DNA of 64,000 bases from Candidatus Babeliales bacterium (GCA_050179755.1 JBFXEV010000001.1:1033994-1097993), one strand, 5' to 3'; shown: positions 150-44,463, counted from the first letter of the stretch. The notes: a model not told the origin generated them from the letters alone. Numbers and translations: made by a program.

Positions 150-225
150 TCCTCGGTAGCTCAGCTGGTAGAGCACACGACTGTTAATCGTTAGGTCGCA
201 GGTTCGAGTCCTGCCCGAGGAGCCA
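150..225 (+). tRNA. tRNA-Asn(GTT)
   Basis: Cloverleaf TCCTCGG...CCGAGGA-G-CCA, D-arm AGCTCAGCTGGTAGAGC, anticodon loop CT-GTT-AA, T-loop GGTTCGAGTCC, encoded CCA. Confidence 0.97.
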
Positions 226-265
226 AACAAACGAAGTTTATTTGGCAACAAGGGCATTTGCCCGG

Positions 266-315
266 CCTGTCCGCCGTAGCTTGCCGAGCCTGAAGGCCCG
301 GATAAGCGTAGGAGG
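266..315. repeat. REP-like palindromic element (family A variant)
   Basis: cctgtccgccgtagc...gcgtaggagg; same arms as cttgtcctccgtagctttatgcgtaggag at 52890-52918. Confidence 0.6.
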
Positions 316-390
316 AAGGAGCCAAAGCTTTGAAAATTCACCTTAACTATGTATACTAACATATATAGTTTATCTTCTCATGAAATATTG

Positions 391-468
391 GGGGCTGTAG
401 CTCAGTTTGGTTAGAGCGTTCGCCTGTCACGCGAAAGGTCGCGAGTTCGAGTCTCGTCAGCCCCGCCA
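391..468 (+). tRNA. tRNA-Asp(GTC)
   Basis: Acceptor GGGGCTG/CAGCCCC-G-CCA, anticodon loop CT-GTC-AC, T-loop GTTCGAGTC. Confidence 0.97.
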
Positions 469-787: not shown

Positions 788-1396
788 ATGATATTAAGAA
801 GCTTAGATGGCAAAAAGCGCTGTTTTGGTGGCCAACCGGGTAAAGAATTTTATGCAGAATATCATGATAATGAATGGGGCATTCCTGTTCATAATGATCA
901 GCACTTATTTGAAATGCTCATTTTGGAGGGTGCCCAAGCGGGATTAAGTTGGGAAACTATTCTTAAAAGACGTACAGGTTATCGCAAAGCTTTCCATGAT
1001 TTTGATCCAGTTAAAGTGGCGTCAATGAGCGATGCTGAACTGGATGTATTATGTTCCAACCAGGAGATTATTCGTAATAAACGCAAAATATATACCGCAC
1101 GCCAGAACGCTCAAGCTTTTTTACGCATCAAGCAAGAATTTGGATCATTTGATCAGTATCTTTGGGATTTTGTTGGTAGCAAGCCTATGGTAAATCATTG
1201 GCAGCGGTTTGAAGATGTTCCGATTACCACGGTTGAAAGTGATGCATTATCAAAAGATCTCAAAAAGCGCGGGATGGCATTTGTTGGTTCTACAATTATG
1301 TATGCATACATACAGGCGGTAGGTCTAGTCAATGACCACTTGATCGAGTGCTGGAGGTATGGCCATGCTATCGCAGATAAGCAAAATAATTATTAG
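788..1396 (+). CDS. tag: DNA-3-methyladenine glycosylase I
   Basis: YHDNEWG, LFEMLILEGAQAGLSWETIL, IIRNKRKI, GLVNDH motifs. Confidence 0.95.
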   Translation: MILRSLDGKKRCFGGQPGKEFYAEYHDNEWGIPVHNDQHLFEMLILEGAQAGLSWETILKRRTGYRKAFHDFDPVKVASMSDAELDVLCSNQEIIRNKRKIYTARQNAQAFLRIKQEFGSFDQYLWDFVGSKPMVNHWQRFEDVPITTVESDALSKDLKKRGMAFVGSTIMYAYIQAVGLVNDHLIECWRYGHAIADKQNNY

Positions 1397-2412
1397 TTTT
1401 TTGAGGAACTAGCTGATTTAGGTATCCGAGGACTTTCTTTAATTGCTTTATTGATATTATAGATAATATCTCTTTGTAATTGAGCGTCAGGTGCATCAGG
1501 AAAATATTTTTTTGCTAATGCTAATTTATCGCGAACAATTTCTGGAATTAATTGAGCAGCAACAAGCCTTCCCATATCTCTACCAAGAATATTTTGTTTT
1601 TTAGTTAAGGCAATAATTGCCGGTATTACATGCTGAATCTCACTTGGAGAAACTCTCGTGAGTAATATTCTTAGCACTCCGCTAATATTCTGAATAATAA
1701 GTTGTCTTAATTCTTCCTCTTGACGAGGCAATAGCTCTTTTGCAGCATTTAATTTTTGTGTAACTAATTCGGGAACGAGCTGAGCTGCAACAACACTGCC
1801 AACAGTTTGCCCCAGGGCTGGATTAATTAGATGTTGTATTGAGGCAAGGTTTGGCAGTATAGATACTAATTCTAGGGGGGAAACTGATGTGCTTAAAGCA
1901 CGAATAGCTTGAACATTATTCGATTGCCGGGCACCTTGCATTGGAGTCAATTCAAATTTATCAGGTGTGTTAATATTGGCACCATACGCAATAAGAATTG
2001 GAATTGCGTTTGCACCAAGAAACCCAGAAGAAACTGCAGCATGCAATGGTGTTTGGCCATTGTTATCGAGTGCCTCAATATTTGCACCAGCTTGAATGAG
2101 CGTGCTCACGCCCACAGTATTTCCAGCTCTTGCAGCGTGATGAAGAGGTGTTTGGCCTTCTAGATCTTTGTAATGTAAGTCAGCGCCATAGTTAAGAAGC
2201 TGATTAATTTGTTGTATATGGGGGTCTATCTGCTCAATGTTTCTATAATAAGGCACAGATCCGGCTAGACTCAATAATATTTCATTCCTGATATCTTGGG
2301 ATCTCCCTTTACTATCTTGTGTTAACTGTACAGGTTCTTGCATAGCATGCACTAAGCAAGTCTGTGGCAGCATTAAGCCAATTAAGATAAATAACATACG
2401 TTTTCTATTCAT
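1393..2412 (-). CDS. Secreted ankyrin-repeat protein with two copies of a C-terminal helical domain
   Basis: Signal peptide; GQTPLHHAA and GQTPLHAAV repeats; duplicated SPxE...AAQLxPE...KL unit. Confidence 0.9.
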   Translation of the reverse strand: MNRKRMLFILIGLMLPQTCLVHAMQEPVQLTQDSKGRSQDIRNEILLSLAGSVPYYRNIEQIDPHIQQINQLLNYGADLHYKDLEGQTPLHHAARAGNTVGVSTLIQAGANIEALDNNGQTPLHAAVSSGFLGANAIPILIAYGANINTPDKFELTPMQGARQSNNVQAIRALSTSVSPLELVSILPNLASIQHLINPALGQTVGSVVAAQLVPELVTQKLNAAKELLPRQEEELRQLIIQNISGVLRILLTRVSPSEIQHVIPAIIALTKKQNILGRDMGRLVAAQLIPEIVRDKLALAKKYFPDAPDAQLQRDIIYNINKAIKESPRIPKSASSSKN

Positions 2413-2596
2413 GGTAATCCTTTTTTATCCGTAAATGAGCAGATAAGCCATATCTGGGGCATACTTTCTCACTTTCAAAGTACCAAATCTGAGGCATAAA
2501 AAGCAATGGTTTGGGGGCAAGAAGCCCCTTTGTTTCAGGTTTTTTACTCTTGAGCCTTGCGCAAATTTTGAGTTGCCTGGGCAAGGTTAGTAATGC

Positions 2597-3289
2597 TTAA
2601 TTATGGCTGTCTGCAGTGCATGAATTATTCTTTAATGCCGCTTTGTGACGCATTTCTAGAAACAATTGAGATGTTTTCAGCCTTCTAACTTTTTCCTTTT
2701 GGTCAGCATCGTGCCATGCATTTTGTAAGTATTTAATTGTTTCATAGCCACCAAAGATAATTCCTGGTATAACGCTCCCTATCACATTAATACTCAATGA
2801 AGCAGCATCAATACTTGTGGGCGTTTGCTGCAGTTGGCAATAGGAAAGTATGCTTAACGTGAGATTTACTACGGAGAAAGCGGTGACAGCTGCTGGAAAT
2901 ACTACTGTTCTATAGCGGGGGCAACACCGTGCACATTTCTTGGTGGCAATGCGATCTTGCTGCAAATTTACTTGCTCGTGAGTATAGTTGAGTGCATGGA
3001 GTAATTGGTGAGTGCACTGCGCAGTATCCGTCTGATTAATCTCGTTTGCATCTTGTTTGAATAGTTGACTGAGTTCCAGTATATTGCCATCTCCTATGTG
3101 TTTTTTTAATTCAACAGATAATGCGGTTGAGGCTTTCCCTTCTTCGATACTAACATTAACTTCAGGGGTCTGCTGGGATATAGTTGCAAGAGCAGTTCCT
3201 TGCACCTCCATCCCATTGAGTGTATGGCCTAATGCACAGGGTAAAACAACTATTGATTTGCATAACAAATATAAAAAGAGATTGTTCAT
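2597..3289 (-). CDS. Hypothetical exported protein with two hydrophobic helices
   Basis: 230-aa ORF, N-terminal signal-like segment, two internal TM-like segments. Confidence 0.7.
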   Translation of the reverse strand: MNNLFLYLLCKSIVVLPCALGHTLNGMEVQGTALATISQQTPEVNVSIEEGKASTALSVELKKHIGDGNILELSQLFKQDANEINQTDTAQCTHQLLHALNYTHEQVNLQQDRIATKKCARCCPRYRTVVFPAAVTAFSVVNLTLSILSYCQLQQTPTSIDAASLSINVIGSVIPGIIFGGYETIKYLQNAWHDADQKEKVRRLKTSQLFLEMRHKAALKNNSCTADSHN

Positions 3290-3477
3290 TTATTTTTCTT
3301 TTAAGAGTAAATCTTTTGGTACATAAAAATGCATAATTACAAAGCGTTGTTATTTTATCTGTGCATTCAAGAGTCGATTCATTTTGCCAAAAAAAATTGA
3401 CTTTATGTGTTTGAATAATGCTGCAATAAGCATTTGCTTAGATAAATAATGTGTGTGGTATGCAATGTAGATGTTAT

Positions 3478-3864
3478 TTAGAATGTAAGGCAGGCGGGGG
3501 GAGCTCGTAAAAACCGTGTCGTAAGAGAAATGACTTGTATAAAAGAGGTGAATTCTTCTTTTCTAAGAGTATTGAGTATTTGTAGCTTTAATAAGGTGGG
3601 GACAAATTTTTTAAAGGCAGTGGAAAGCCGCTGAGCAAATAACAATCGTTGGGGTTTGTGATTTTGTAATTGTGTAAGCGGTTGATAGCACTGTGCTTGA
3701 TCAAGGTGGGCTACTTTTGCCGCGGCAGAGATTGCTACTTGCTTGGATGGAGTGCTTGCAACGTATGAAGAATCTTGCGCCTGTGCCCCACGAGGCACTA
3801 AAAATGCCTCGAGTAAAAATAAGATTATTAGAAATTTTTTTAGCACATTAAATCCAGTTACCAA
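3478..3864 (-). CDS. Small signal-peptide protein ending in RAPP (candidate arrest peptide); start uncertain
   Basis: KKFLIILFLLEAFLVPRGAQA signal; C-terminal FLRAPPACLTF. Confidence 0.6.
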   Translation of the reverse strand: MVTGFNVLKKFLIILFLLEAFLVPRGAQAQDSSYVASTPSKQVAISAAAKVAHLDQAQCYQPLTQLQNHKPQRLLFAQRLSTAFKKFVPTLLKLQILNTLRKEEFTSFIQVISLTTRFLRAPPACLTF

Positions 3865-3928
3865 TAGAGTATATATGTTACCTTACCATTCTATGGTAAA
3901 AAGTACAATTGTTTAAACATTAGTAACT

Positions 3929-4408
3929 CTAAAATGTGCGTGGTTCTGTAAAATCGAGCACCTGCGCATTAGTAATGCGCATAAGATCCTGCGTGTTAAT
4001 CTTTAGGGTTGTTTTTGGAGCGCCTGAACCGCCATAACAATACGTGTTTTTTAGCACGGCTTCATCAACGATGGTTGGTACATCAAGATTGATTAAACAA
4101 ACCTCACCAATAGTTGCACCGGTGATTTCTTTAATAGTCTGTGGATCAGCCATACTGATATCTTTAACATCAAGTGCATGTTTTAATTTTTTAAATGAAA
4201 TCTTGGTATTTCCTGCAATAATGGCAGCTAGATAACCATCTTTTGTTTTTAATATGAGGGTAGGTGCAGCTTCGTGAAGTGCAATACCATATTGATTAGC
4301 ACCACTTTGTGCAGTTGCAAGACTAATTTCATCAGTAAGAATAGTAAAGTCTATGTTTTCTTTTTGAAGTAAGTTTTTTAATTGTTCTAATTTAATTGTT
4401 TCATTCAT
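3929..4408 (-). CDS. YbaK/EbsC-family aminoacyl-tRNA deacylase-like protein
   Basis: ISFKKLK...ADPQTIKEITGATIGEV, YCYGGSG; the usual conserved Lys (xKT) appears as APTL. Confidence 0.85.
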   Translation of the reverse strand: MNETIKLEQLKNLLQKENIDFTILTDEISLATAQSGANQYGIALHEAAPTLILKTKDGYLAAIIAGNTKISFKKLKHALDVKDISMADPQTIKEITGATIGEVCLINLDVPTIVDEAVLKNTYCYGGSGAPKTTLKINTQDLMRITNAQVLDFTEPRTF

Positions 4409-12380: not shown

Positions 12381-13775
12381 ATGCTCAGTTCCTTAATTCA
12401 TTATTTTTATCCGGATTTAAAACCAAATGAGGTAAAGAAATTCGGAATTTTAGCGTTAATTTTCTCATTAATTATTGGCGGCTATTGGTTAATACGTCTT
12501 CTTAAGAATACGTTATTTATTAAAGTTTGTTTCCCTGAAGATTTAGGTTGTATTCCAAACCAAGGTCTTCTTTTGCAACCTACAGCAAAATTAATTTCTC
12601 CACTAGTAGTGTTTGCCTTGGTGCTTGTCTACTCCAAGTTAGTAGATATGTATAAAAAGCACGTACTCTTCTATATTATTGCTTCTGTATATGTATTGCT
12701 TTTTGGTTCATTTACCGTGATGCTTTTTTTGAGAAACATGTATGGTAATGCTTTCTTGGGTAAAACATTGCTTGGAGCATTTGGTTGGGTGTCATACTTT
12801 ACCATTGAAAGTTTTGGCTCGTTAATTGTTGCGCTTTTCTGGTCTTTCACTAACAGTATCACTGCATCTGATTCTGCAAAACGTGGCTATCCGCTTATTA
12901 TTGCGTGTGCTCAAGTCGGCGCAATTATTGGTGCAGGGCTTATGATTTTTTCTCACACGTTTGGTTTGCCACAATTATTGGCAGTTGTAACTTTGACTAC
13001 AGCGGCTATTATTCCCGCTGTTTATTACTTTATGAAAGAAGTTCCTGCTTCTGATCAAGTGGGTGATCCAAAAAGTGCAAAAACTGAAGGTAAATCGGAA
13101 GGTTCTGCTGGCTTTTTAGAAGGTATTCGTTTACTTTTCACTAAGCCATATTTGATGGGTATTTTACTTGTTTCTACTATTTATGAAGTTATGAACCAAG
13201 TGCTTGAATATCAAATGCAGTATCAAGTTAATAGCTCATCTACTTTTGCTGGTGAATTAGGTTTTGCACAGTTCCAAGGTTATTATGGTGTGGCAACAAA
13301 CACGCTATCATTCTTAATGGCGCTTCTTGGCACAAGCTATTTGATTAAAAAGTATGGCTTACGTTTTGGTCTTTTATTCTTCCCAGCGTGCCTTGTAGCA
13401 GCGCTTGCGAGCTTGCTTGCATTCTACTATTTTGGCAATCCAACTGCTGGTGCATTGCTTGCAGCAACGTTTGTTGCCATGATGATTGCAAAAGGTCTTG
13501 GCTATGCGGTGAACAACCCAGTTAAAGAAATGATGTATATTCCAACAAGTAAAGATGCTAAATTCAAAACCAAAGGTTTCATTGACGTCTTTGGTAGCCG
13601 TATGGCAAAAATGGGTGGTGGTCAGATCAACAATATGTTTAAAACGAGCTTTAACGATCTTATTGTGTATGGCACGCTATTCAGCTTTGGTTTATCGGCA
13701 GTGTGGATCTTGGCAGCAGTCTATGTTGGTAACAAGAATGCTCAATTGATTAAAGATAATCAAATTGTTGAGTAA
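12381..13775 (+). CDS. Npt1/Tlc-family ATP/ADP (nucleotide) translocase
   Basis: 12 TM; LFWSFTNSIT...AKRGYP; KGLGYAVNNPVKEMMYIP...KFKTKGFIDVFGSR. Confidence 0.92.
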   Translation: MLSSLIHYFYPDLKPNEVKKFGILALIFSLIIGGYWLIRLLKNTLFIKVCFPEDLGCIPNQGLLLQPTAKLISPLVVFALVLVYSKLVDMYKKHVLFYIIASVYVLLFGSFTVMLFLRNMYGNAFLGKTLLGAFGWVSYFTIESFGSLIVALFWSFTNSITASDSAKRGYPLIIACAQVGAIIGAGLMIFSHTFGLPQLLAVVTLTTAAIIPAVYYFMKEVPASDQVGDPKSAKTEGKSEGSAGFLEGIRLLFTKPYLMGILLVSTIYEVMNQVLEYQMQYQVNSSSTFAGELGFAQFQGYYGVATNTLSFLMALLGTSYLIKKYGLRFGLLFFPACLVAALASLLAFYYFGNPTAGALLAATFVAMMIAKGLGYAVNNPVKEMMYIPTSKDAKFKTKGFIDVFGSRMAKMGGGQINNMFKTSFNDLIVYGTLFSFGLSAVWILAAVYVGNKNAQLIKDNQIVE

Positions 13776-18934: not shown

Positions 18935-19170
18935 AGAAGTTGATCGTTTTGTTTTGTAATTATAAAGTGATATCTAGAATAACATTTTTTTCATATTCGC
19001 GATAATTTGGAAAAGCTTTAAAATAAAGGGCTTTTAAGCATTATACGCATCTACAAGTTTAATGCATGCTTGCAACTCTTGATAAATGGCCGTAGTCTAT
19101 CAATGCGTAAGTTGTATTGAATCTCGTTAAATGGCCTAGAATAATTGCAAACTTAAAAAGGGTTACAACA

Positions 19171-20946
19171 ATGATATACCGCAAAGCGTCTCTATTTTTA
19201 TTTTTTGCAACATTTTTTATTTGTTCACGTATAAAAGCTGGCTTTATTGAAGGAACGCTCGTTAAAACCTCTCAAGGCTTTGTGCCAATACAAGAATTGA
19301 GAATTGATGACGAAGTCTATGCATATGATACACGCACAGAAGAATTTGCAATACGCAGCATTGTGGCTAGTAATAGTCATGCAATATCTTCTTTGATCCA
19401 TCTGCAAGCCAATGGAAAACACCTTTTTGCTGATGCTGAACAGTTGTTTTACTTAGTCCTTGAAAAGAAATGGTGTTGTGCAAAAGATCTTCAGCCCGGA
19501 ATGTTGATGCAATCTTATCATGGGCAAAAAATTTTGGTGGAAAAGGTCAATGAACTCAATGTAAATAGCACTGTACATGAGATTACGCTTAATGAACCTC
19601 ACACTTTTTGCGTGACTGGCGATGGCATAGTTGTTCATAATTTTGCTTTTACCATCCCAATTTTGATTTTTGGTGCAGAAGGTATATCTCTTGCTAGTGG
19701 TATTGGTTCCGCATTAGTAAGCGGCGTCTGTGCAATAATTTGTTATAAAATTATTGCAGACACCGCTGGAGCAACCGTTGACCCTAATTTAGGTGTTTCT
19801 CAAGCTGATTTTTTAGGATCACAACAACAAAATATTAATCAAACAATAAATTATAACGCTCAAGCGAAGCATTATTCTCTAGCGCCTGATCACTCTCAAG
19901 CTACTGCAAAAAATACTGTCTTTTCTAGTCCAAAAACATCTGCTGACTTGGCAAGTAGCAGTTTTGAAAGATATCCTGGTGTGCATGATACACGGTCTTT
20001 CCCTGTCCCAAAATTGCCTATAGTCAATGCATGTGAAATTCCTGAAAAAAATAAGAATGGGCAGGAAATATCCACGTGCCCACCACCCAAAGAAGAAGAA
20101 CTATTACCAACGCTTGGTTGCGGCCAACCTCAAATGCCTGAGCCAATTATTTCTGGAGAATGTTTGCCCGATGTGCCAGAAGCGGACAGACTACAGTGTC
20201 CAGGAATTATTGGAGCATGGAAGCCGGAAGATGCGCAGACCTCATGCAATTGGAGCCGATCTCCACAGATACCCGGTTTGCTTGATATAAGTCCTGAAAA
20301 CGATTTACAAGAAGATTCAGGTGATAGTGAAGATGAAGCGCAAGTTGCCGACGATGAAATAACTGGCCAAAATGATGATGTTGCTCCCGCCAAGCCCAAA
20401 GAGAAAAATCAAAGGCAATCCAAAAAGAACTCACGACCATGGGATCTACCTAATCATGACCCAGCAATCGATATTGAGAAAATTGATTTTTCTGAAGTGC
20501 CTTATTTAACTCAAGAAGAAATCGAATTAATTAAAGAATGTATTGAACGATTTTTAGAGGTAGAAGGCTTTCTAGCAAATGATGGTGCTTTGTGGAGAAT
20601 ACTTAAATTTGAGGATCAAAAAAATGGAGCATTGTTTGAATTAGAATACATCAGTGAGTTGACTGATCAAGGCAGTACCATTATCAAAATGGGCTATGAA
20701 GTAAAAATACAAGGTGAAGTAATAGAAATTGATATTGAAACTGATACTGAATTAATAGAATGTAAATCTGGTACCTGGGAACTAAAAGAAGAAAATTACA
20801 TTAAGAAACTAAAGAAAAAGCTGCAGTTGGGAAAAGAACATAGCAAGAATCTGCAAAAGGAATTTGTAGTTGTTTCGAAAAAGTCAATTCCTACAATGTG
20901 GAAAAATTGGTTCATCGAAAACAATATAAATTTTAGAGAAAAATAA
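19171..20946 (+). CDS. Polymorphic toxin: signal peptide, Hint domain, linker, PD-(D/E)xK (REase-fold) nuclease tip
   Basis: GFIEGTLVKTSQGFVPIQEL...VHEITLNEPHTFCVTGDGIVVHN (Hint, 19240-19641); tip GALFELE...EIDIETDTELIECKSG; ATG 19171 preferred over TTG 19117. Confidence 0.85.
   Translation: MIYRKASLFLFFATFFICSRIKAGFIEGTLVKTSQGFVPIQELRIDDEVYAYDTRTEEFAIRSIVASNSHAISSLIHLQANGKHLFADAEQLFYLVLEKKWCCAKDLQPGMLMQSYHGQKILVEKVNELNVNSTVHEITLNEPHTFCVTGDGIVVHNFAFTIPILIFGAEGISLASGIGSALVSGVCAIICYKIIADTAGATVDPNLGVSQADFLGSQQQNINQTINYNAQAKHYSLAPDHSQATAKNTVFSSPKTSADLASSSFERYPGVHDTRSFPVPKLPIVNACEIPEKNKNGQEISTCPPPKEEELLPTLGCGQPQMPEPIISGECLPDVPEADRLQCPGIIGAWKPEDAQTSCNWSRSPQIPGLLDISPENDLQEDSGDSEDEAQVADDEITGQNDDVAPAKPKEKNQRQSKKNSRPWDLPNHDPAIDIEKIDFSEVPYLTQEEIELIKECIERFLEVEGFLANDGALWRILKFEDQKNGALFELEYISELTDQGSTIIKMGYEVKIQGEVIEIDIETDTELIECKSGTWELKEENYIKKLKKKLQLGKEHSKNLQKEFVVVSKKSIPTMWKNWFIENNINFREK
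20407..20562 (+). repeat. 156-bp perfect direct repeat (copy 2 at 22020-22175) just upstream of the variable toxin tip
   Basis: aatcaaaggcaatcc...tttttagaggta identical in both copies; flanks diverge. Confidence 0.95.
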
Positions 20947-20948
20947 TC

Positions 20949-21812
20949 ATGAAAAGAACTTATTCATTTTGCGTTATGCTTAATTTAGATTATTCAGAGG
21001 AAAATATTTTTTCAATTCTCGAAAATGGTTCAAAATTAGGCTGCGTCTATAGAGATCATGGCCTCGGTGATACTCTTTCAAATATAGTTAATAGCAAAGA
21101 TGCCACAAAAGTTGTGTTGACTCGTTTTATCCAAGAATATGAATATGGACCTTATATTTTAGCAAAATTGGGTAAAACACATTATACTATTTGGTTTTAT
21201 CGTAGAAATAGTAAAATTTACTTGTGTATCGACCCTGATCATATCACATGGAAAAAACGTTATGAGCTGTGTGATTGGCAGGGTATCAATTTCTATCGCT
21301 ATCAAAGTTTTATATTAAGCTTAGTCGGTAACAATGTAATCACACATTTTAAAACGTATGAGTATTATAATGCAATTTATGCTGCAGAGTACAAAGAGCG
21401 TGATAAAAAAATATATGTAAAATTGAATACATATTGGGCGTATGATGTGTATCATCACCTAAAAGTGAATGGCAAGATACTAGGCATCATTTGGTTAGAT
21501 GCGAAGATGCAACCAATAAACATTAAAACTGAAGATAATACGCTTGAAAATATAATATATGATGAAAATAGGCAGCAATGTTGGTACGCTCTACACAACA
21601 ATATTGTATTAAAATTTTCTCTTATCGTAGGTCCAATTTTTATCATTGAGCCTATGAGTAATGGTAATTCCACCACAATGGATCAAGCACACGTGCTTGA
21701 TAGTGGCTTAAGAACTACTATTGAATTATTTAAAAATATGCCTGTTTTTAGATTTATCACCTTCAAGAGCGATGAAGACATAATTAATATCAACAAAATG
21801 GATGATAGATAG
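20949..21812 (+). CDS. Putative cognate immunity protein 1
   Basis: Starts 2 bp after the toxin stop; aromatic-rich, AT-rich; two paralogs downstream. Confidence 0.75.
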   Translation: MKRTYSFCVMLNLDYSEENIFSILENGSKLGCVYRDHGLGDTLSNIVNSKDATKVVLTRFIQEYEYGPYILAKLGKTHYTIWFYRRNSKIYLCIDPDHITWKKRYELCDWQGINFYRYQSFILSLVGNNVITHFKTYEYYNAIYAAEYKERDKKIYVKLNTYWAYDVYHHLKVNGKILGIIWLDAKMQPINIKTEDNTLENIIYDENRQQCWYALHNNIVLKFSLIVGPIFIIEPMSNGNSTTMDQAHVLDSGLRTTIELFKNMPVFRFITFKSDEDIININKMDDR

Positions 21813-21848
21813 TTATGTTTTCCGCATTAGCTTGGTTTTCTTGATTAG

Positions 21849-22565
21849 AGCAGGCATCCACATATATCCGGACTGCTTGATATAAGTCCTGAGAAAGATT
21901 ATCAAGAAGATGCTGACAATCAAGAAGATCCTGGTAATTGTGAAGATGATGCACCAGTTGTCGAAGGTGAAATAACTGGCCAAAATGATGATGTCGCTCC
22001 AACGAAGCCTAAAGAGAAGAATCAAAGGCAATCCAAAAAGAACTCACGACCATGGGATCTACCTAATCATGACCCAGCAATCGATATTGAGAAAATTGAT
22101 TTTTCTGAAGTGCCTTATTTAACTCAAGAAGAAATCGAATTAATTAAAGAATGTATTGAACGATTTTTAGAGGTACAAGGATTTATTGCAAAAGATGGTG
22201 CTCTCTGGAGAATACTTAAATTTGAAGCTCAAAAAGATGGGGCATATTTTGAATTAGAATACATCATTGAGCTGAGTGATCAAGGCCGTAAAATTATTAA
22301 AATGGGTGAGGAAGTCAAAGTACATGATGGATTAGTTGAAATTGACATTGAAACTGACATTGAATTAATAGAATGTAAATCCGGTATTTGGGAAATTAAG
22401 AATGCGCAAATAATTAAGAATTTACAAGATAAACTATTGTCTGCAAAAGAATATGGCAAACAGTTACAAAAATCATTTGTTGTAGTTACTAAAAAACAAA
22501 TTCCACCGATGTGGCAAAACTGGCTTGATCAAAATAATATTAACCATAGAGATTGGGAACCATAA
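21849..22565 (+). pseudogene. Orphan toxin C-terminal cassette (tip 2), lacking the N-terminal region
   Basis: Open frame from 21849 (after a TAG aligning with a Trp codon of the full toxin) homologous to toxin nt ~20255-20946; catalytic EIDIETDIELIECKSG intact. Confidence 0.85.
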
Positions 22566-22619
22566 GGAATAGTTATTCTTTGAAAAATTAGTTAATTAAA
22601 AATACTTAAAATGATTTTT

Positions 22620-23016
22620 TGGTTATTGAATAATTTCTTACAAATGCTAATGCTCTCTTGAGTTACTCGAATCCGTAGAGCAAAAATTGAGCATTATTTA
22701 AATTAGAATATATCATGGAGCTGAAATGAACAAGACTAGACCAATTATTAAAATGGGACATAAGTTTGCAGTGCAGGAGGAACTAATAGAAATTGATATT
22801 GAAACTGATACTGAATTAATAATATGTAAATCTAGCGTTTGGGAGCAAACGAGAACAGATAAAATTAATAATTTAAAAAATAAGTTATTCCTTGCAGGAA
22901 AATGTGGCAATGGCATGGGAAAGCCATTCGTCATAGTTTCTAAAAAAATCATTCCGCTAGAGTGGAAAAATTGGTTTAATAAAAATAATATTAAATATAG
23001 AGAATGGCAACGATGA
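22620..23016 (+). pseudogene. Degraded orphan toxin tip 3
   Basis: IIKMG...EIDIETDTELIICKSS...IPLEWKNWF; frameshifted homology upstream of 22726; start boundary approximate. Confidence 0.8.
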
Positions 23017-23873
23017 GTAAAAATTATGAATTTTTAGCTATGTTAGACTTAAAATATTCAAAAGAGAACAGTCTATTAATTCTTGAAAATGGAACAAGAA
23101 TGGGATGCATTTTCAAAAACCAAAGATTTACTAATCCTGAGGTAGCTATAATTGATAAATTTTCTGCCATGGAACTTGTTTGGTCACGTCATCTAGAAAA
23201 TTATGAATATGGGCCACTTGTATATGCTAAATATTATAAAACGCATTTTGCAATTTGGTTTTACAATAAAAATAATAAAATATATTTATACTTAAGCCCG
23301 ACTCATATTGGATGGAAAAAACGATATGATCTGTGTGATTGGTATGGCATTCATTTTTACCGCTATCAAAGTTTTATGTTGCGCTTAATTGGCAACAATA
23401 AAATTACACATTTTGAAACGTATGAGTACTTTAATGCTTCCTATGATGCTGAAGATATGTCTTATAACACCAAAATATATGTAAAATTGTATACGTATTG
23501 GGCTTATGATGTGCACCATCACTTAAAAGTAAATGGCAAGATACTAGGCATTATTTGGTTAGATGCTAAGATGCAACCAATGAGCATTAAAACTGAAGAC
23601 AATTCGATTGAAAATATTCTATATGATGAAAATAGGCAGCAATGTTGGTTCGCTATACACCATAACATCTTATTAAAATTTTCTATGCCAGCAGACCGTA
23701 CTTTTATCATTGAGCCTATGAGTAACGGCAGCTCTGCCATAAATCAAGCAGAATTGCTCGATAGTGGTTTAAGAACTATTATTGAACTATTTAAAAATAT
23801 GCCTGTTTTTAGATTAATTACCTTTAAGAGCGATGAAGATCTAATTAATATCAATAAGATGGATGATAGATAA
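23013..23873 (+). CDS. Putative immunity protein 2 (paralog)
   Basis: Shares WKKRYxLC, FYRYQSF, HHLKVNGK and INKMDD with 20949-21812; ATG 23013 overlaps the tip-3 stop (ATGA). Confidence 0.8.
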   Translation: MSKNYEFLAMLDLKYSKENSLLILENGTRMGCIFKNQRFTNPEVAIIDKFSAMELVWSRHLENYEYGPLVYAKYYKTHFAIWFYNKNNKIYLYLSPTHIGWKKRYDLCDWYGIHFYRYQSFMLRLIGNNKITHFETYEYFNASYDAEDMSYNTKIYVKLYTYWAYDVHHHLKVNGKILGIIWLDAKMQPMSIKTEDNSIENILYDENRQQCWFAIHHNILLKFSMPADRTFIIEPMSNGSSAINQAELLDSGLRTIIELFKNMPVFRLITFKSDEDLININKMDDR

Positions 23874-23951
23874 TTGCATTTTATGTATTTGCATTATTTT
23901 CTTGAAGAGTTGACTTGATTTAAATAATATTAAATATACGAAATGGCAATC

Positions 23952-24818
23952 ATGAGTAGAAATTTTGAATTTTCCGCAATGCTAAATTTATGCCATTCTA
24001 AGGAAAATATTTTTTCAATTCTAGAAAATGGGGCAAAATTAGGTTGCGTTTATAAAAACACCAGATTTACAAATCCTAATGTTAAGATAGTTAATATTTC
24101 TCTTGCTGCTGAACTTGTTTTGTCTCGTTTTATTGAGGACAGCGAAGAGGGTCCGCTTATTTATGTTAAATATCATAAAAATAATTTTGCTCTTTGGTTT
24201 TATAATATAAGCAACAAAATCTATTTGTTTATGAGCCCGACTCATATTGGATGGAAAAAAAGATATGATCTTTGTAATTCCTATGGTATTAATTTCTATC
24301 GTTATCAAAGTTTTATGTTGCGCTTAATCGGCAACAATATAATCACACATTTTGAAACTTTTGAATATTTCAATGAAGCCTTTGATGCAGAAGATATGCT
24401 TCATAACACCAAAGTATATGTAAAATTGTATATGTATTGGCCATATGATGTGTATCATCATCTAAAAGTAAATGGCAAGATGCTAGGCATTACCTGGTTA
24501 GATGCAAACAAACAGCCAATAGATCTTAAAGCTAAAGATAATGCGCTTGAAAGCATGCTCAACGATGAAGAAAGTGAGCAATGTTGGTATGCTATTCGTA
24601 ATAATATTGTATTAAAATTTTCTCTTACCGCAGGTCCTATTTTTATCATTGAACCTATGATCTCACCTTCGCTGAATTCCGGTACGCTAGATCAAGCACA
24701 AGTGTTTGATACTGGCTTGAGAACGACTATCGAATTATTTAGAAACGTGCACGTTTTTAGATTAATTACCTTTAAAAGTAATGAAGATCTAATTAATATC
24801 AACAAAATGGATGATTGA
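23952..24818 (+). CDS. Putative immunity protein 3 (orphan paralog)
   Basis: Same motifs; preceded by about 30 nt resembling the end of a toxin tip. Confidence 0.8.
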   Translation: MSRNFEFSAMLNLCHSKENIFSILENGAKLGCVYKNTRFTNPNVKIVNISLAAELVLSRFIEDSEEGPLIYVKYHKNNFALWFYNISNKIYLFMSPTHIGWKKRYDLCNSYGINFYRYQSFMLRLIGNNIITHFETFEYFNEAFDAEDMLHNTKVYVKLYMYWPYDVYHHLKVNGKMLGITWLDANKQPIDLKAKDNALESMLNDEESEQCWYAIRNNIVLKFSLTAGPIFIIEPMISPSLNSGTLDQAQVFDTGLRTTIELFRNVHVFRLITFKSNEDLININKMDD

Positions 24819-40538: not shown

Positions 40539-43500
40539 TTGAATGAGTTTTTACATCATGGAAGTGTCATCATTCCTATGTTTCGCTTAAGCTTGTCGGT
40601 ACGTTTTCAACTAATATTAAGTTTGATTTACTTAGGTCTGATTTTTTTTGTATGGCCTAGCAAGCTGTACACATATTCTGTGGATACAATAACTTTTTCA
40701 GGCTCTTCGTATCCAAATGATTCAAACACCATTAGAGATCAAAAACCGCGCATTTCGCAAGAAACTGCAAACATTCGTAGTCGTATTGAAAGCATTAATA
40801 ATCCTGATACTATCCCTTCTGGTACGTTTCCAAAAAATAACAATTATAGTGAGTATGAATTTATAGAAGAACGAGACCGAGATAGAAAAAGAGCAGAAAA
40901 AGAAAGACGTGGGCAAGCAGAAAACCAAAAACAAAAAGAAGAAAAAATTATACAGAAGGAAGTTGCAAAAAAGTTATTAGATCAATCAAATAGAATTTCA
41001 TCTTTTACACAGCAAACATCTTCCTCATCTCACTACGCTAAACAAGACAAATCACCTGACTATATAACAAAACGCGCCACGTATTTAAAAAAGTTCCATG
41101 ATGATCCTGATTATTACTACAGATCTACCGTCTATTTAAGGTATTCAAATTACCAAACAAGATCTCTTCTCGAGCAACACACGATTGATACGGATGAGTT
41201 TTATAATGAATTCTTCGGCAATCACTTGCAACATGGAATTCATGAAGAATATTTAAACATTGTCTCTCGTGTAACTAAAATTAATTTTGATAAAAACAAC
41301 TGTCAACTCAGATCATTTATTGTATTGGCTGTGCAAACTTCCCGCGATAACAATGTAAAAGGCAATTGTGTGACATCTTTAGAAATTAATGATTTTTGTC
41401 ATCATATCCTGAATCCTAATTATCATGGTTTTCTTGCAGGTCAAATTGCTCACTTACAAACAACTATTACCTATTATGAATCAAGTCATTGGAAACAAGC
41501 TCTAGGGTATCTAGCAGACGCTGCTCTAGGTGATCAAGAAATGCGCGCTTGCTTGAATGCTGCTCAAAAGTTTACTGAACAATTCAACATAATAAGGGAT
41601 TCTCAATATAATGTGCAAGTTATAGAAATTATGGAGCAATTAAGCTTCAATGAACTTTCTGATCTCACGGCGCAGCGCCAATTTGAATTGTTAGAAAAAC
41701 ATCATGAAGCGATTGCCATAAAAGCATTACGAGCGCTAAATCAACAAAATATAAAAGATTTGCCAATTTTTGGTTATGCAGTTTCTATTCTTAAATTAGA
41801 TAATCCACATAATGCATCAAATAGAAAGCTCATTGATTATTTATTATATTCTAATGATTGTCTACATCGCGTTCATGAGCTCACGAATACGCCATATAGC
41901 TCTTTTCAGCAAAAAAATCCTTTCTTCACCGATAAAGGTATTCTTAAAGAATATGCTATTATTGCAGATATTGATAATTTGCCTATTCCGCCATTAGATC
42001 ATTTAAAAAGCCCCGTATCTGCCCACGATTTATTATACACCTATTGTACAACTAATAAACTTGAGAAAAAAAAATTGGCTTATAGTGGCCTTTATCATGC
42101 AACCTATGCAACGATTCATCATCATTCTGAACGCTCAAAAGGCCATGAGTTGCTTGCCGATAAGTATTATAAAACACTCTATAGTAGTGTGTTCAGTAAA
42201 AATGAAAAACTTATTGATTGGTGTGATGATCTTGCGTGCAGTTATGAAAACGTGTATCAACAAGAGGTGCACGATGAGCTTGTTTGGCTAACTAATTATT
42301 ATATTGATACTCAAGAAAAAAGTATTAAAAAAGATGCAATCACCCTCAGATTGCTTGATGATATTGAGGATACTTTAATTACTGCCCATGGTTATAATCA
42401 AGATAATCAGTCAGAAAAAAGTCATGACCTTATTGCAAATATCGTACATAACTTTGGTATGCTGCCAAAAGAAAATCAAAAAACACCCGATCTATTTCAA
42501 TCACTCAATCTACTAGATGTTTCTAGAAATATAAGTAATAAAATACAAGCAAGAGTTGCACATATTAAAGTGCATGCATGGTTAAATGATTATAATCTTG
42601 AAGAAACACTAGAGTATGCTCGGCATGAGCTTTCAAAAATGGAAATACAGCATGGCAAATTAATATGCCAAGCCGATTCAATTCAAGAAAGACCTGATGA
42701 GGTAATTCAATCACTATGTTTAGCAGAAGTTCTTGGATTTAGCGTAAAAACTGATGCAGATACTATTGATATTGGTTGCATTCCTAAAAAAGATCTTGCA
42801 ACATTTAAAGACAATTGGCCAGAAGAAGAAGTGGTACAGAATGTATTCAACCTTTGGCCTGAAGAAGTCCCCTTGTGTTCTGCAGGGTCACAAGGTGCAG
42901 CATATGAACGATATGCTGATCGCTATGATGCCTATCAAGAAACCAAACTCACGCCGTATGTTTTTTTTGAAAGAACGTATGAAATTTCGAAAGAAGCTCA
43001 ACAATTGCTTGATAAAAATGGAATAGATAGTGATTATTTAAAAGTTGGAACATACAATCGTATACAACATCAATTACATATAGAACTCATTGATATTCTT
43101 GAACAAACAACATCTTTAGACGCTCATCAAGAAGTGTGCGATTTATTACGCTCGACAAACACTATGATGCTTGATTTTATATCAAGTGCAGCATATGAGA
43201 ATAAAAATGGCAATATTTTACGCACGTGGACTATTGCTGATTTTTGTTGGGCAACGCTAGATTGTGGTCAAGCAATTCTTGAGGGAGCTCTTGAGGGCGG
43301 TGCTAATGCATTGATCTATCCTTTCAATTGTCCTGTTGAAACAATCTTGTTTACCGTAGCAGGTAAATATATGTTGTATTATCAACTTACAAAGCTTACT
43401 TATGAACTTGGCAGTGCGGTGTACGATCATCTTTCAAAAGAACAAGAAGAAAATACATCCAGCGAAACAAAAACTGCAATACAATTACGCGATATTTTAA

Positions 43501-44462
43501 AAGCTGCATCTTCTTTCGGTGCACAATTTTTGGTAGACCATAAAATAGTAAATCCTATAGTTACGCAACGTATTAATTTAATGCAAAGTAAATTGGTCGA
43601 TAAGTTTGTATTAGAAAATACGACTCAATGGTCTAAAATGAGACCAGAGGCTATTAAAGCTCCACAGACAGCGCAAGTGCAATTGGCAAGTGGTGAAAAA
43701 ATTGAAGTAACTTTTCACAATGAAAATTTAGGGCAACGGCCGCAAGGCTTAAATTCTCCACAGAAACCGCGGAATTCATCGGGTGATAAAAAAGAATATC
43801 CAAGACCATCACCTGAAGAAATAGATCGCAATAGAGTAAATAAAAATTTAGCAGATAAAGCTCGTAAACAAAAAGCTATTGATAATGCATCTCAAAAAGT
43901 GGAAAGAACCAATCGTCAAAAAATTAATACTGCCCAAAATATTCAAGATGCACAAATTTGTATCTTACATAAATATGACGAATTAGAAAAAATTTTTTAT
44001 AAACATCTTTCACCTCATGCTGAATTTTTATATAAAAAATTTGGGATAAGGATAAAAGGAATTGATTTTTATCATCATATGGAAAGAGATTTTAATCAAA
44101 ATATAAAAGGTTATACAGGTTTTCATTCGGCACGCAATCATCCTGAGCATGTTTTTAAACTATTAGATGGTCCTAATGAGCATGGATTTGAAAATATTAT
44201 TGTTGGTAGTGCAAGAAAAATAAAAAAAGCTCCTACCAGTACGTATCCAAAAAACTGGGATGAAATTACTATCGGCCAGAGAGTTATTGAAGGGTTGCTT
44301 TCAGGAGAAGTTCATAAAAATAAGGGTGGAATCTTGGAAATACATGGAAAAGCTCAAAATTATTTACCTCATAGGGGTGTTGTTCCGTTTGATATTACAA
44401 TTTTTTTAGAACCTAGTGGAATGATAAGGTCATCATTTCCACAATTAAATTTTAGGAAATAA
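40539..44462 (+). CDS. Large exported polymorphic toxin with C-terminal bacterial EndoU-like nuclease
   Basis: N-terminal hydrophobic segment; internal repeats; tip FYHHMER...YTGFHS...STYPKNW...IRSSFP. Confidence 0.8.
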   Translation: MNEFLHHGSVIIPMFRLSLSVRFQLILSLIYLGLIFFVWPSKLYTYSVDTITFSGSSYPNDSNTIRDQKPRISQETANIRSRIESINNPDTIPSGTFPKNNNYSEYEFIEERDRDRKRAEKERRGQAENQKQKEEKIIQKEVAKKLLDQSNRISSFTQQTSSSSHYAKQDKSPDYITKRATYLKKFHDDPDYYYRSTVYLRYSNYQTRSLLEQHTIDTDEFYNEFFGNHLQHGIHEEYLNIVSRVTKINFDKNNCQLRSFIVLAVQTSRDNNVKGNCVTSLEINDFCHHILNPNYHGFLAGQIAHLQTTITYYESSHWKQALGYLADAALGDQEMRACLNAAQKFTEQFNIIRDSQYNVQVIEIMEQLSFNELSDLTAQRQFELLEKHHEAIAIKALRALNQQNIKDLPIFGYAVSILKLDNPHNASNRKLIDYLLYSNDCLHRVHELTNTPYSSFQQKNPFFTDKGILKEYAIIADIDNLPIPPLDHLKSPVSAHDLLYTYCTTNKLEKKKLAYSGLYHATYATIHHHSERSKGHELLADKYYKTLYSSVFSKNEKLIDWCDDLACSYENVYQQEVHDELVWLTNYYIDTQEKSIKKDAITLRLLDDIEDTLITAHGYNQDNQSEKSHDLIANIVHNFGMLPKENQKTPDLFQSLNLLDVSRNISNKIQARVAHIKVHAWLNDYNLEETLEYARHELSKMEIQHGKLICQADSIQERPDEVIQSLCLAEVLGFSVKTDADTIDIGCIPKKDLATFKDNWPEEEVVQNVFNLWPEEVPLCSAGSQGAAYERYADRYDAYQETKLTPYVFFERTYEISKEAQQLLDKNGIDSDYLKVGTYNRIQHQLHIELIDILEQTTSLDAHQEVCDLLRSTNTMMLDFISSAAYENKNGNILRTWTIADFCWATLDCGQAILEGALEGGANALIYPFNCPVETILFTVAGKYMLYYQLTKLTYELGSAVYDHLSKEQEENTSSETKTAIQLRDILKAASSFGAQFLVDHKIVNPIVTQRINLMQSKLVDKFVLENTTQWSKMRPEAIKAPQTAQVQLASGEKIEVTFHNENLGQRPQGLNSPQKPRNSSGDKKEYPRPSPEEIDRNRVNKNLADKARKQKAIDNASQKVERTNRQKINTAQNIQDAQICILHKYDELEKIFYKHLSPHAEFLYKKFGIRIKGIDFYHHMERDFNQNIKGYTGFHSARNHPEHVFKLLDGPNEHGFENIIVGSARKIKKAPTSTYPKNWDEITIGQRVIEGLLSGEVHKNKGGILEIHGKAQNYLPHRGVVPFDITIFLEPSGMIRSSFPQLNFRK

Positions 44463-44463
44463 T

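Follow-up and report, generated by a model that had tools for sequence, protein, structure and literature searches.

A putative polymorphic toxin–immunity locus with decaying nuclease tips and orphan immunity genes in Candidatus Babeliales

The toxins of the CDI and Rhs types carry conserved junction motifs (VENN and PxxxxDPxGL), the orphan modules of the CDI, Rhs, and MafB loci have been proposed to act as a reservoir of cassettes, and EsaG is a DUF600 protein. In the CDI, Rhs, and Maf loci, the toxin gene is followed by an immunity gene, and then by start-less tips with upstream homology and further immunity genes, with recombination at a conserved junction before the tip (see also PMC4927057). 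In Staphylococcus aureus, strings of non-identical esaG genes adjoin the polymorphic esaD, with recombination occurring between the paralogues (PMC9484751, available portion). Toxin domains of the REase fold are also found at the C-terminus of Sec/T2SS-type polymorphic toxins, such as Tox-REase-3 with Imm7/Imm-SUKH, and Tox-REase-5 with Imm52, the motifs of Tox-REase-3 being [KR]ExD, K, and ExQxK (PMC3482391, excerpt). The SitA proteins of the myxobacteria are polymorphic toxins of small size that are exported by Sec and encoded ahead of their immunity genes, and they serve kin discrimination with no specialized injection apparatus (PMC5562445, excerpt).

The locus described here is found in a window of 64,000 nucleotides, which is the whole stretch of DNA that was analyzed. 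All the parts listed in the original prediction (the toxin, three immunity genes, and tips 2–4) are present, as follows:

19171–24818: whole locus, Candidatus Babeliales (phylum Dependentiae); toxin, three immunity genes, and spare tips
19171..20946, + strand: complete toxin gene, encoding 591 aa when read from ATG 19171 (ORF listing, PT-HINT match)
19171..19239, + strand: predicted Sec signal peptide, 23 aa (hydropathy peak centered at residue 17)
19240..19641, + strand: pretoxin HINT domain (PF07591 match; VVHN invariant in 4/4)
19642..19761, + strand: hydrophobic, glycine-rich segment of ~40 aa, directly after the His-Asn (Kyte-Doolittle)
19762..20496, + strand: Pro/Asp/Ser-rich linker with six cysteines (composition; Cys positions 288–359)
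20407..20562, + strand: 156-bp perfect block, copy 1, at the linker/nuclease junction (exact, maximal)
20497..20946, + strand: tip 1, PD-(D/E)xK nuclease domain, 149 aa (AF2 model, Foldseek, motif counts)
20949..21812, + strand: imm1, putatively the cognate immunity gene (287 aa), 2 nt past the toxin stop
21849..22565, + strand: orphan tip 2 (translation; repeat families D4 and D10)
22020..22175, + strand: 156-bp perfect block, copy 2 (exact match to copy 1)
22592..23016, + strand: decayed tip 3 (5' stops, tblastn similarity, Ile for the catalytic Glu)
23004..23873, + strand: imm2, 289 aa, alternative start 23013 (ORF; overlaps the end of tip 3)
23903..23951, + strand: 3'-terminal trace of tip 4, ~49 nt (local alignment; repeat family D3)
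23943..24818, + strand: imm3, 291 aa, alternative start 23952 (intact putative orphan immunity gene)

This order of toxin, immunity gene, and start-less tips, and the recombination at the junction, are shared with the CDI, Rhs, and Maf modules, whereas the toxin itself is small (591 aa), combines a signal peptide, a Hint domain, and a hydrophobic segment, and has DPAIDIEKIDFS as its junction motif, in place of VENN or PxxxxDPxGL. The restriction of the tips to one family, and of the immunity proteins to another, had been considered unusual, but esaD/esaG already provides an example in which one family of nuclease toxins is accompanied by several immunity genes in tandem, all of them paralogues (PMC9484751, available portion). 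EsaD differs in its nuclease fold and its T7SS/LXG-type export, whereas here the remnants of toxin tips lie between the immunity genes. The locus also resembles SitA in its small, predicted Sec-exported polymorphic toxin and downstream putative immunity gene (PMC5562445, excerpt), although the SitA proteins are lipoproteins transferred by outer-membrane exchange, whereas the present toxin contains a Hint domain and no canonical lipobox. Overall, this appears to be a familiar type of bacterial warfare locus, made from uncatalogued protein families.

The toxin ORF (19117–20946) is open from a TTG at 19117 (609 aa), and its likely start is the ATG at 19171, where the database prediction P0019 also begins. 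The claimed HINT domain proved to be real, given that PT-HINT (PF07591) matches residues 48–175 of the 609-aa ORF with an E of 2.4e-10 and 41.2 bits, above the Pfam gathering cut-off of 27.7. This is the only Pfam match on the toxin, which has no TPS/FHA, RHS, or MafB-N domain. A CDI (CdiA/CdiB) or Rhs toxin was considered and rejected, as Pfam shows no TPS/FHA domain or RHS/YD repeats, and CdiB is not found among the neighbors. The neighboring genes encode a hydrolase, a phosphatase, a kinase, and a Nudix enzyme, and no partner secretion gene adjoins the toxin. The cleavage site of the signal peptide was placed by hydropathy and by the invariant A-G-F with which the Hint domain opens (A23, G24, and F25 in 4/4 HINT-type relatives), rather than by a dedicated predictor.

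Hint domains have two catalytic ends, a first-position Cys, Ser, or Thr and a His-Asn at the C-terminus. In the present case, none of these three residues is found at the first Hint position, which is Gly in 4/4 relatives, while the C-terminal His-Asn is invariant (VVHN in 4/4), so only one of the two catalytic ends is in place. Beyond the His-Asn, the means of the 19-residue Kyte-Doolittle windows centered on residues 167–190 reach 1.97. The tip does not adjoin the Hint domain, but is placed ~285 residues downstream.

The AF2 model of tip 1 (pLDDT 96.2, pTM 0.89) has the order alpha-beta-beta-beta-alpha-beta (H39-57, E62-71, E74-82, E85-90, H99-118, and E122-127), with D79 on E74-82 and E88/K90 on E85-90. 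The E-x-E, D, and E-x-K motifs are complete, and in the 53-row alignment of the tip family, D79 and K90 are found in every row, and E88 and E48 in 52. The top Foldseek matches in the PDB are the nuclease domains of VC1899, Card1, Cdn1, and Can2, together with AF1548 and XisH (probability 0.98–1.00, TM by query 0.42–0.55), with NucS (EndoMS), Bax1, and PspGI at a probability of 0.77–0.97 and a TM by query of 0.37–0.52, and CdiA-CT at rank 36. None of the Foldseek matches reached E <= 0.001, the best being 1.4e-3. Tip 1 is, in this confident model, a PD-(D/E)xK nuclease fold, and the assignment of the tips to this class in the original prediction is supported by both the fold and the motif counts.

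The tip family, with 109 clusters, is uncatalogued. The [KR]ExD motif of Tox-REase-3 (PMC3482391, excerpt) is also found in the consensus of the tip family, with an Arg or Lys before the ExD in 32 of the 53 members, and I or V in the tips of the window. In Pfam, the window tips had no match to Tox-REase-3 (PF15647) at E <= 1, while 12 of the 53 relatives had matches below the threshold (best E 5.7e-4), and P0108, in a separate scan of 40 proteins, scored 24.8 bits against a cut-off of 25. Membership in Tox-REase-3 was rejected on these scores, which fall short of the gathering cut-off, and on the final motif, which is E-C-K in 52/53 members, instead of ExQxK. The immunity proteins, for their part, have no Pfam match to Imm7, SUKH, or Imm52.

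Three relatives of the first 300 residues of the toxin were found, of which P0130 and P0132 combine PT-HINT with Ntox37, and P0131 combines it with another C-terminus. The linker and tip, in turn, are found on a different N-terminus of ~650 aa in P0020, P0021, and the toxin of L001, a locus in another Babeliales genome. The linker from ~20017 onward is common to these non-HINT toxins, with residues 494–793 of P0021 aligning to 20017–20943 at 49% (tblastn). Both halves of the toxin are reused in modular fashion among relatives, the HINT N-terminus with alternative C-termini and the tip with another N-terminus, which is the hallmark of a polymorphic toxin. Alternative C-termini and stand-alone tip cassettes with upstream homology also characterize a polymorphic toxin in the sense of Zhang et al. 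2012, and the predicted polymorphic-toxin locus, with its orphan tips and extra immunity genes, is supported by both its anatomy and its relatives. The same definition asks for a gene directly downstream that neutralizes the toxin; here, the toxin and the putative immunity gene are coupled by a gap of 2 nt in the window and an overlap of 1 nt in L001, whose immunity protein shares only 56% identity. No orphans are found at L001, which is the only other genome locus.

The farther an orphan tip lies from the main gene, the more it has decayed, whereas all three immunity genes are intact. The tip 2 frame is open from 21849 to 22565, with its first in-frame ATG/GTG/TTG at the GTG 22110, and comprises ~87 codons homologous to the linker, after which the nuclease domain (22110–22565) is intact and has all the catalytic residues. 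Its dN/dS against tip 1 is 0.22. No immunity gene is found directly behind tip 2, which is a misfit for simple serial displacement and would require an additional deletion. Tip 3 is truncated, with stops in its 5' part, a residual ORF of 96 aa (22726–23016), and tblastn similarity back to 22592, and the Glu of its E-x-K is replaced by Ile, the sole exception among the 53 aligned members. Pairwise identity is 70.9% between tips 1 and 2, 56.3% between tips 1 and 3, and 50.5% between tips 2 and 3. The trace of tip 4 was correctly recognized in the original prediction, although it is longer than the ~30 nt proposed (23915–23951), extending over ~49 nt from 23903. Across ~23903–23938, 27 of 35 positions agree with the tip 3 sequence at its 3' end, giving a local score of 21, where 500 shuffles reached 17 at most, and the similarity continues into the start of the immunity gene.

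The 156-bp block (20407–20562 = 22020–22175) is exact, as predicted, and is the maximal exact run, but it is not located where the conserved region ends, being an island of identity instead, which reaches 22 codons into the nuclease domain. The homology between tips 1 and 2 begins at ~20249/21844, with an identity of 82.9% before the block and 78.9% after it. Tip 2 keeps ~330 nt of sequence homologous to the main gene on its upstream side, including the 156 exact bases. At a background identity of 79–90%, the probability of 156 consecutive matches is 1e-16 to 7e-8. With a dS of 0 in the block and 0.98 (~1) beside it, the island shows a recent gene conversion at the junction.

The three immunity genes are paralogous (287–291 aa), with pairwise identities of 61.5–67.0% (amino acid) and 75–77% (nucleotide), dN/dS ratios of 0.22–0.33 (0.22–0.30 for imm2 against its paralogues), and a dS of 0.74–0.91. 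These genes and tip 2 are shown, at the sequence level, to be under purifying selection. The family, with 46 invariant columns in 18 rows, comprises 16 clusters, with one locus among 185,579 species genomes, and its named records are from Candidatus Babeliales only. The earlier failure to recognize this family was borne out by the lack of any match in Pfam, NCBIfam, or the PDB, and neither Imm52 (PF15579) nor TsiV (PF11876) matched at E <= 1. Given that the tip family is larger (109 vs 16 clusters), most tips would be paired elsewhere with something else, or with nothing. The model of imm1 has a pLDDT of 83.8, and the low-confidence Atlas model of imm3 (pLDDT 0.60) provides leads only, with a TM of 0.43/0.51 to Imm52 and 0.42/0.38 to TsiV, the latter also being retrieved, likewise as a lead only, by feature similarity (0.83). 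The downstream protein is large for a putative immunity protein, and is strongly conserved.

Taken as a whole, the locus is probably (at roughly seven chances in ten) a polymorphic toxin–immunity locus in which the array is a record of successive tip replacements. The toxin would be exported by Sec, with the Hint domain as the mature N-terminus, and type II secretion may provide the onward route, the Dependentiae and Babeliales being reported to have type II secretion components, together with Sec and pilus genes in the latter (PMC4776705, available text). The Hint domain would probably cut only at its own C-terminus, because the first nucleophile is lost and the His-Asn is retained, and this cut would free the hydrophobic segment, linker, and tip. 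The freed tip may then attack nucleic acid in a recipient cell, presumably bacterial, while the cytoplasmic 287-aa product of imm1 would neutralize the tip in the producer. Incoming tip–immunity cassettes would be joined to the main gene by recombination in the conserved junction, pushing the older ones downstream, if this direction is correct, where the displaced tips would decay with distance, becoming start-less, then truncated and catalytically dead, and finally a trace of 49 nt. The orphan immunity genes would be kept by selection against strains that still make the displaced toxins. The 156-bp identity island shows that recombination at the junction is ongoing, so tip 2 could, in principle, move onto the main gene. 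The decay gradient and the intact immunity genes fit this serial displacement with retained orphan immunity. Several points were counted against this scheme: the size and strong conservation of the downstream protein, its tiny family beside that of the tips, the missing immunity gene behind tip 2, the ankyrin repeats of distant tip relatives, the lack of a Foldseek match at E <= 0.001, the lack of a known route of entry into the recipient for the signal peptide–Hint architecture, and the remoteness of the Hint domain from the tip. A more speculative extension, which is unlikely as it stands, is a self-contained Babeliales delivery system, in which the nucleophile-less Hint domain frees a membrane-active segment–linker–nuclease fragment that enters rivals in the same protist cell, the immunity protein is a new fold, and the orphan immunity alleles decide the outcome of co-infection.

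The array might, alternatively, be a working store of cassettes, with silent tips being recombined regularly onto the HINT gene to switch the toxin allele. The intact, constrained tip 2, with its catalytic residues and its upstream homology including the perfect block, is what such a store would contain, but only one of the three orphans is usable, tips 3 and 4 being dead, and a crossover in the block would lose tip 1 and imm1, leaving tip 2 before a dead tip, rather than its own immunity gene. A fusion of tip 2 to the HINT N-terminus, which the original prediction had proposed to seek in related genomes, was looked for among the retrieved relatives and not found, and L001 has no orphans at all. 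This possibility is doubtful. Of the proposed tip-exchange system, the gene conversion at the junction stands, while the regular use of the orphans is overstated, and past displacements account for the array better than a working store does. It is even less probable that the nuclease is an effector secreted into the protist host, with the immunity protein protecting the producer prior to export, and the array resulting from tandem duplication and decay, with no bacterial rivalry. The Babeliales are parasites of protists (PMC4776705, available text), many toxins of intracellular bacteria have been argued to be aimed at the host (Zhang et al. 2012; PMC3482391, excerpt), and ankyrin repeats are fused to the distant tip relatives P0113, P0107, and P0128 (3/9 scanned), which suggests that part of the tip family is host-targeted. 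The competition among co-infecting intracellular strains put forward in the original prediction was likewise overstated in view of these fusions. Set against this, host-directed toxins mostly lack immunity genes (PMC3482391, excerpt), the locus maintains two intact immunity genes (dN/dS 0.22–0.33) with no live partner toxin, which would be useless against its own effector, and the paralogues are old (dS 0.74–0.91), rather than recent duplicates.

An assembly artefact was also considered. The source was judged to be a metagenome-assembled genome, in which strain variants of a single toxin–immunity pair might be strung together, and the repeats are 75–79% identical, with one exact block of 156 bp. 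Such an artefact is highly improbable, given that the copies differ by 21–25% of their DNA, far above strain variation, and that the junctions are of differing kinds, tip 2 being intact, tip 3 truncated, and tip 4 reduced to 49 nt. The proteins are recorded on 2 contigs, the longest being 1,526,461 bp. The tip 3 remnant, in particular, is unlikely to have been created by this assembly, because a tip 3-like remnant (88%) and an imm2-like protein (84%) are taken to share a separate contig of 2,291 bp.

The locus between window positions 19171 and 24818 has the layout set out in the original prediction, which is borne out by the ORF map, the repeat map and the translations of the reading frames. 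The full toxin gene, whose C-terminal nuclease domain is referred to here as tip 1, is followed by three paralogous putative immunity genes (imm1, imm2 and imm3) and by orphan copies of the tip (tips 2-4):

19171-20946 (+): full toxin, 591 aa; the ORF is open from TTG 19117, and P0019, the database prediction of this toxin, begins at ATG 19171
20949-21812 (+): imm1, 287 aa, beginning 2 nt past the toxin gene
21849-22565 (+): tip 2, an open frame in which the first possible start is GTG 22110
22592-23016 (+): tip 3 remnant, interrupted by stop codons in the 5' part, with a 96-aa ORF left over
23004-23873 (+): imm2, which overlaps the end of tip 3
about 23903-23951 (+): tip 4 trace, 49 nt, in the 3' part of the spacer between imm2 and imm3
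23943-24818 (+): imm3, from the ORF map

Tip 2 is a repeat of the C-terminal ~229 residues of the toxin, with 73% identity, and the tip 4 trace matches the 3' end of a tip at 27 of 35 positions, with a local score of 21, where 500 shuffles reached 17 at most. The scan of the locus for promoters and terminators was uninformative, given that the sites were rarer than in the shuffled sequences (24 vs 31.1 and 2 vs 3.5, respectively). The toxin array has no flanking tRNA; genes for tRNA-Asn and tRNA-Asp are located at window positions 150-468 (+), far from the locus.

The only Pfam family found on the toxin is PT-HINT (E 2.4e-10, 41.2 bits, with a cut-off of 27.7), and the search of NCBIfam returned zero matches for the toxin, the tip and the immunity proteins. 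The hydropathy profile has two hydrophobic regions, the first at the N-terminus and signal-like, the second a glycine-rich segment of ~40 residues right after the Hint domain. A Pro/Asp/Ser-rich linker, containing six cysteines, separates this second segment from the tip. Hint domains have a nucleophile in the first position, and require a His-Asn pair for C-terminal cleavage. In the alignment of four HINT-type relatives, an invariant A-G-F marks the start of the domain and an invariant VVHN its end, and the first Hint position is therefore a glycine, with no nucleophile, and the His-Asn is retained. The predicted signal peptide would end at this glycine, and the mature toxin would start with the Hint domain, which, we infer, could release only what comes after it.

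The modules of this toxin are also found in other combinations. The HINT N-terminus (residues 1-300) recurs, above threshold, with Ntox37 in the database proteins P0130 (E 1.7e-11) and P0132 (8e-10), and with a third type of C-terminus in P0131. The Cys-rich linker and the tip, for their part, are found on an unrelated N-terminus of ~650 aa in P0020, P0021, and the 930-aa toxin of L001, a related locus in a second Babeliales genome. In both genomes, the toxin and immunity genes are translationally coupled, with 2 nt between them in the window and an overlap of 1 nt in L001, even though the immunity proteins are just 56% identical. The longest contig is of 7,760 bp for both the toxin fragment P0018 and the immunity protein P0016, and of 2,291 bp for both P0129, a tip 3-like remnant, and the imm2-like P0003, and from these equal sizes we infer that the members of each pair are found on one contig. 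Given that the HINT and tip modules are swapped, that the partner gene is coupled, and that the relatives are apparently co-located, the locus is classed as a polymorphic toxin system, with toxicity, neutralisation, Hint cleavage, export and target cell all being predictions from sequence. A reading of the locus as a toxin-antitoxin or abortive-infection system is rejected on account of the export signal of the toxin and its polymorphic C-terminus. The toxin loci of the window genome and the L001 genome are not syntenic, and two large proteins of 604 and 510 aa, with repeats that by eye are WD40-like, are encoded upstream of the toxin in L001, at positions 809-4252 (-).

The full HMMER search with tip 2 against 1.84 billion representatives (E <= 0.001) matched 109 proteins of 78-1,359 aa, most of which have the tip domain at the C-terminus, with six matches at E <= 1e-10, and the tip profile recovered 10 proteins in the word-indexed search. 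Pfam recognised no family at E <= 0.001 in 36 of the 40 tip relatives scanned, one of the 40 reaching Tox-REase-3 at 24.8 bits, with a cut-off of 25. Among the 53 aligned members, 12 have a sub-threshold match to Tox-REase-3 (best E 5.7e-4), and the same Pfam scan found neither Tox-REase-3 nor any other match for the tip in the window. The motif residues D79 and K90 are present in all 53 of these members, and E88 and E48 in 52. The motifs of Tox-REase-3 are given as [KR]ExD, K and ExQxK in the available text of PMC3482391, whereas the tip family has R/K-E-x-D in 32 of the 53 members, and E-C-K instead of ExQxK. Given these sub-threshold scores and different motifs, the tip family is filed as a PD-(D/E)xK toxin domain beside Tox-REase-3, but outside it, and its 109 clusters make up a putative REase toxin family that is not yet catalogued.

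The AlphaFold (AF2) model of tip 1 is confident (pLDDT 96.2, pTM 0.89), and its elements are ordered alpha-beta-beta-beta-alpha-beta, as in the restriction-endonuclease core. The Foldseek search of the PDB with this model found no match at E <= 0.001, and its top rows are occupied by nuclease domains, those of VC1899, Card1, Cdn1 and Can2, together with AF1548 and XisH (E 1.4e-3 to 3.7e-2, probability 0.98-1.00, TM by query 0.42-0.55), followed by NucS (EndoMS), Bax1 and PspGI (probability 0.77-0.97), with a Burkholderia CdiA-CT at rank 36. Enzymes that cut RNA are found among these nearest folds (Card1/Can2, CdiA-CT). The best match of the family profile to the PDB sequences, a CARF-nuclease, was not significant (E 0.086). 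A nuclease combined with ankyrin repeats is the usual appearance of the host-directed effectors of intracellular bacteria. These repeats were found in three of the nine distant tip relatives scanned (P0113, with Ank_2 at E 2.8e-35, P0107 and P0128), and part of the wider tip family may thus act on eukaryotic hosts. In the available portion of their paper, Zhang et al. (PMC3482391) argue that many of the toxins of intracellular bacteria are host-directed.

The family encoded downstream of the toxin was not recognised in the original prediction, and it has no match in either Pfam or NCBIfam, with imm1, imm2 and imm3 all lacking a Pfam match even at E <= 1. Among 5.8 billion clusters, the word-indexed search recovered 16 family proteins, 51-100% identical to imm1, of which three are the window's own, and the scanning of one genome per species, in 185,579 species, found one locus (1/82 pattern matches confirmed), in a Babeliales MAG (OY970310.1). 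The immunity alignment has 46 invariant columns over 18 rows, and the imm1 model has a pLDDT of 83.8 and a pTM of 0.86. The Foldseek search of the PDB with this model found no match at E <= 0.001 (best E 1.1e-2, TM ~0.2), and the rows for TBP, SAM-decarboxylase and a START-like di-domain were scattered and unconvincing. The single match to the viral models (E 4.8e-4) is unusable, with a TM of just 0.22, the best E of the family profile against the PDB sequences was 0.35, and no internal repeat was found by the hhalign comparison of the N- and C-terminal halves (probability 0.6%). The downstream family is a candidate new immunity family, with no above-chance PDB match. The Atlas feature scores, all <= 0.87 (TsiV 0.83), are leads only, and the Atlas structure rows (Imm52, TM 0.43/0.51; TsiV, 0.42/0.38) refer to its own low-confidence model. 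As Imm52 is listed as the partner immunity of Tox-REase-5 in the available text of PMC3482391, it is a lead worth testing, rather than evidence.

On inspection, the immunity translations have no hydrophobic N-terminus, and the proteins are thus probably cytoplasmic. The complex prediction for tip 1 and imm1, with a score of 0.00 in both runs, made without controls, counts neither for nor against binding. A fourth paralogue, P0011, has 282 aa and is 57% identical to imm1. The window has no full-identity copy of it, the best tblastn match there being 59%. As its longest contig (1,526,461 bp) is equal in length to that of the window's proteins, it probably derives from the window's genome, which would probably contain at least one further locus of this type. 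The immunity paralogues P0008 and P0009 share the size of their longest contig (10,311 bp each), as do P0012 and P0013 (5,977 bp each), and other Babeliales assemblies may thus also contain tandem immunity arrays.

The repeat predicted between the toxin gene (20407-20562) and tip 2 (22020-22175) is exact over 156 bp, with no possible extension. The main gene and tip 2 are homologous from ~20249/21844 onwards, with 82.9% identity upstream of this block and 78.9% downstream, and a dS of 0.52 for the linker and 0.98 for the nuclease, with zero differences inside the block. As the block is free of differences between diverged flanks, and the chance of a run of 156 matches is 1e-16 to 7e-8 at a background identity of 79-90%, it is a recent gene-conversion or crossover tract between two old alleles, more than a conserved segment. 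The block codes for the junction motif DPAIDIEKIDFS together with the first helix of the nuclease domain, and near variants of this junction are found in the toxins P0018, P0020, P0021 and that of L001. A crossover in the block would remove 1,613 bp, containing tip 1 and imm1, and put tip 2 on the HINT gene, with the survival of the cell depending on whether one of the immunity proteins present covers tip 2.

In the displacement model proposed for the orphans of the CDI and Rhs systems, the end of the main gene is exchanged for that of a newly arrived tip-immunity cassette, and the older cassettes are pushed downstream, where the displaced immunity genes stay useful against other strains. At the present locus, decay rises with distance from the main gene across tips 2, 3 and 4. 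Tip 2 is intact, with all its catalytic residues, and its dN/dS of 0.22 in relation to tip 1 reflects evolution under purifying selection. Tip 3 is truncated, and is the sole member among the 53 aligned that lacks the E of E-x-K. The three immunity genes, by contrast with this gradient, are all full length, with pairwise dN/dS of 0.22-0.33 and dS of 0.74-0.91, and this combination fits the displacement model, in which the array would have arisen through serial displacement, with decaying tips and retained immunity genes. The remnant P0129, from another source, is 88% identical to tip 3 and has an equivalent start, and whereas the Glu of E-x-K was lost in the window copy, P0129 retains it and has a Gly in place of D79. 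One relic has thus been knocked out independently in two lineages, through the loss of different catalytic residues. Tip 2 is the misfit for the displacement model, given that tip 3 comes next, with no immunity gene between the two; either a gene in this position was removed by deletion, or one of the immunity proteins present covers tip 2.

Like the CDI, Rhs and MafB loci, the present locus has orphan modules, and, like the esaD/esaG loci described in the available text of PMC9484751, it has a string of non-identical immunity paralogues. The original prediction considered its same-family make-up to be unusual, but this was already known from the same esaD/esaG loci. Unlike the toxins of all these systems, however, that of the window has no TPS, RHS or LXG features in Pfam, which places the locus outside them. 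What is new is the phylum, the REase toxin family, the unrecognised immunity family and the front end, whose compact architecture (signal peptide, nucleophile-less Hint and hydrophobic segment) lends itself to tests of autocleavage and export.

The Dependentiae are described, in the available text of PMC4776705, as protist parasites whose genes include those for type II secretion and, possibly, pili. The window encodes a TLC-family ATP/ADP translocase (12381-13775 (+), PF03219, E 2.3e-30), which is typical of energy parasites and consistent with such a lifestyle. According to the available text of Zhang et al. (2012, PMC3482391), the intracellular bacteria mostly have toxins without immunity genes, and are probably not fighting conspecifics, Odyssella being among the few exceptions. 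A further exception is provided by the present Dependentiae genome, which combines one live toxin and three intact immunity alleles with the relics of three earlier tips, and the locus suggests that strains meet and compete, presumably in or around their protist hosts. The literature search found no published polymorphic toxin system for the Dependentiae, and its matches for Babeliales toxins and immunity, in the text available, concern animal gut microbiomes.

A further stretch of the window, at 40539-45264 (+), contains a 1,307-aa ORF with a hydrophobic N-terminus, followed 1 nt on by a 266-aa ORF, in the part of the window with the lowest GC content (0.29-0.35). The larger ORF has no sequence match in Pfam or the PDB, and has a 106-residue segment in common with P0023 (25% identity, pairwise E 1e-11), a protein of 1,073 aa that ends in a nuclease of the tip family. 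One possibility is that this ORF encodes another large polymorphic toxin, with a different type of C-terminus and a partner of its own.
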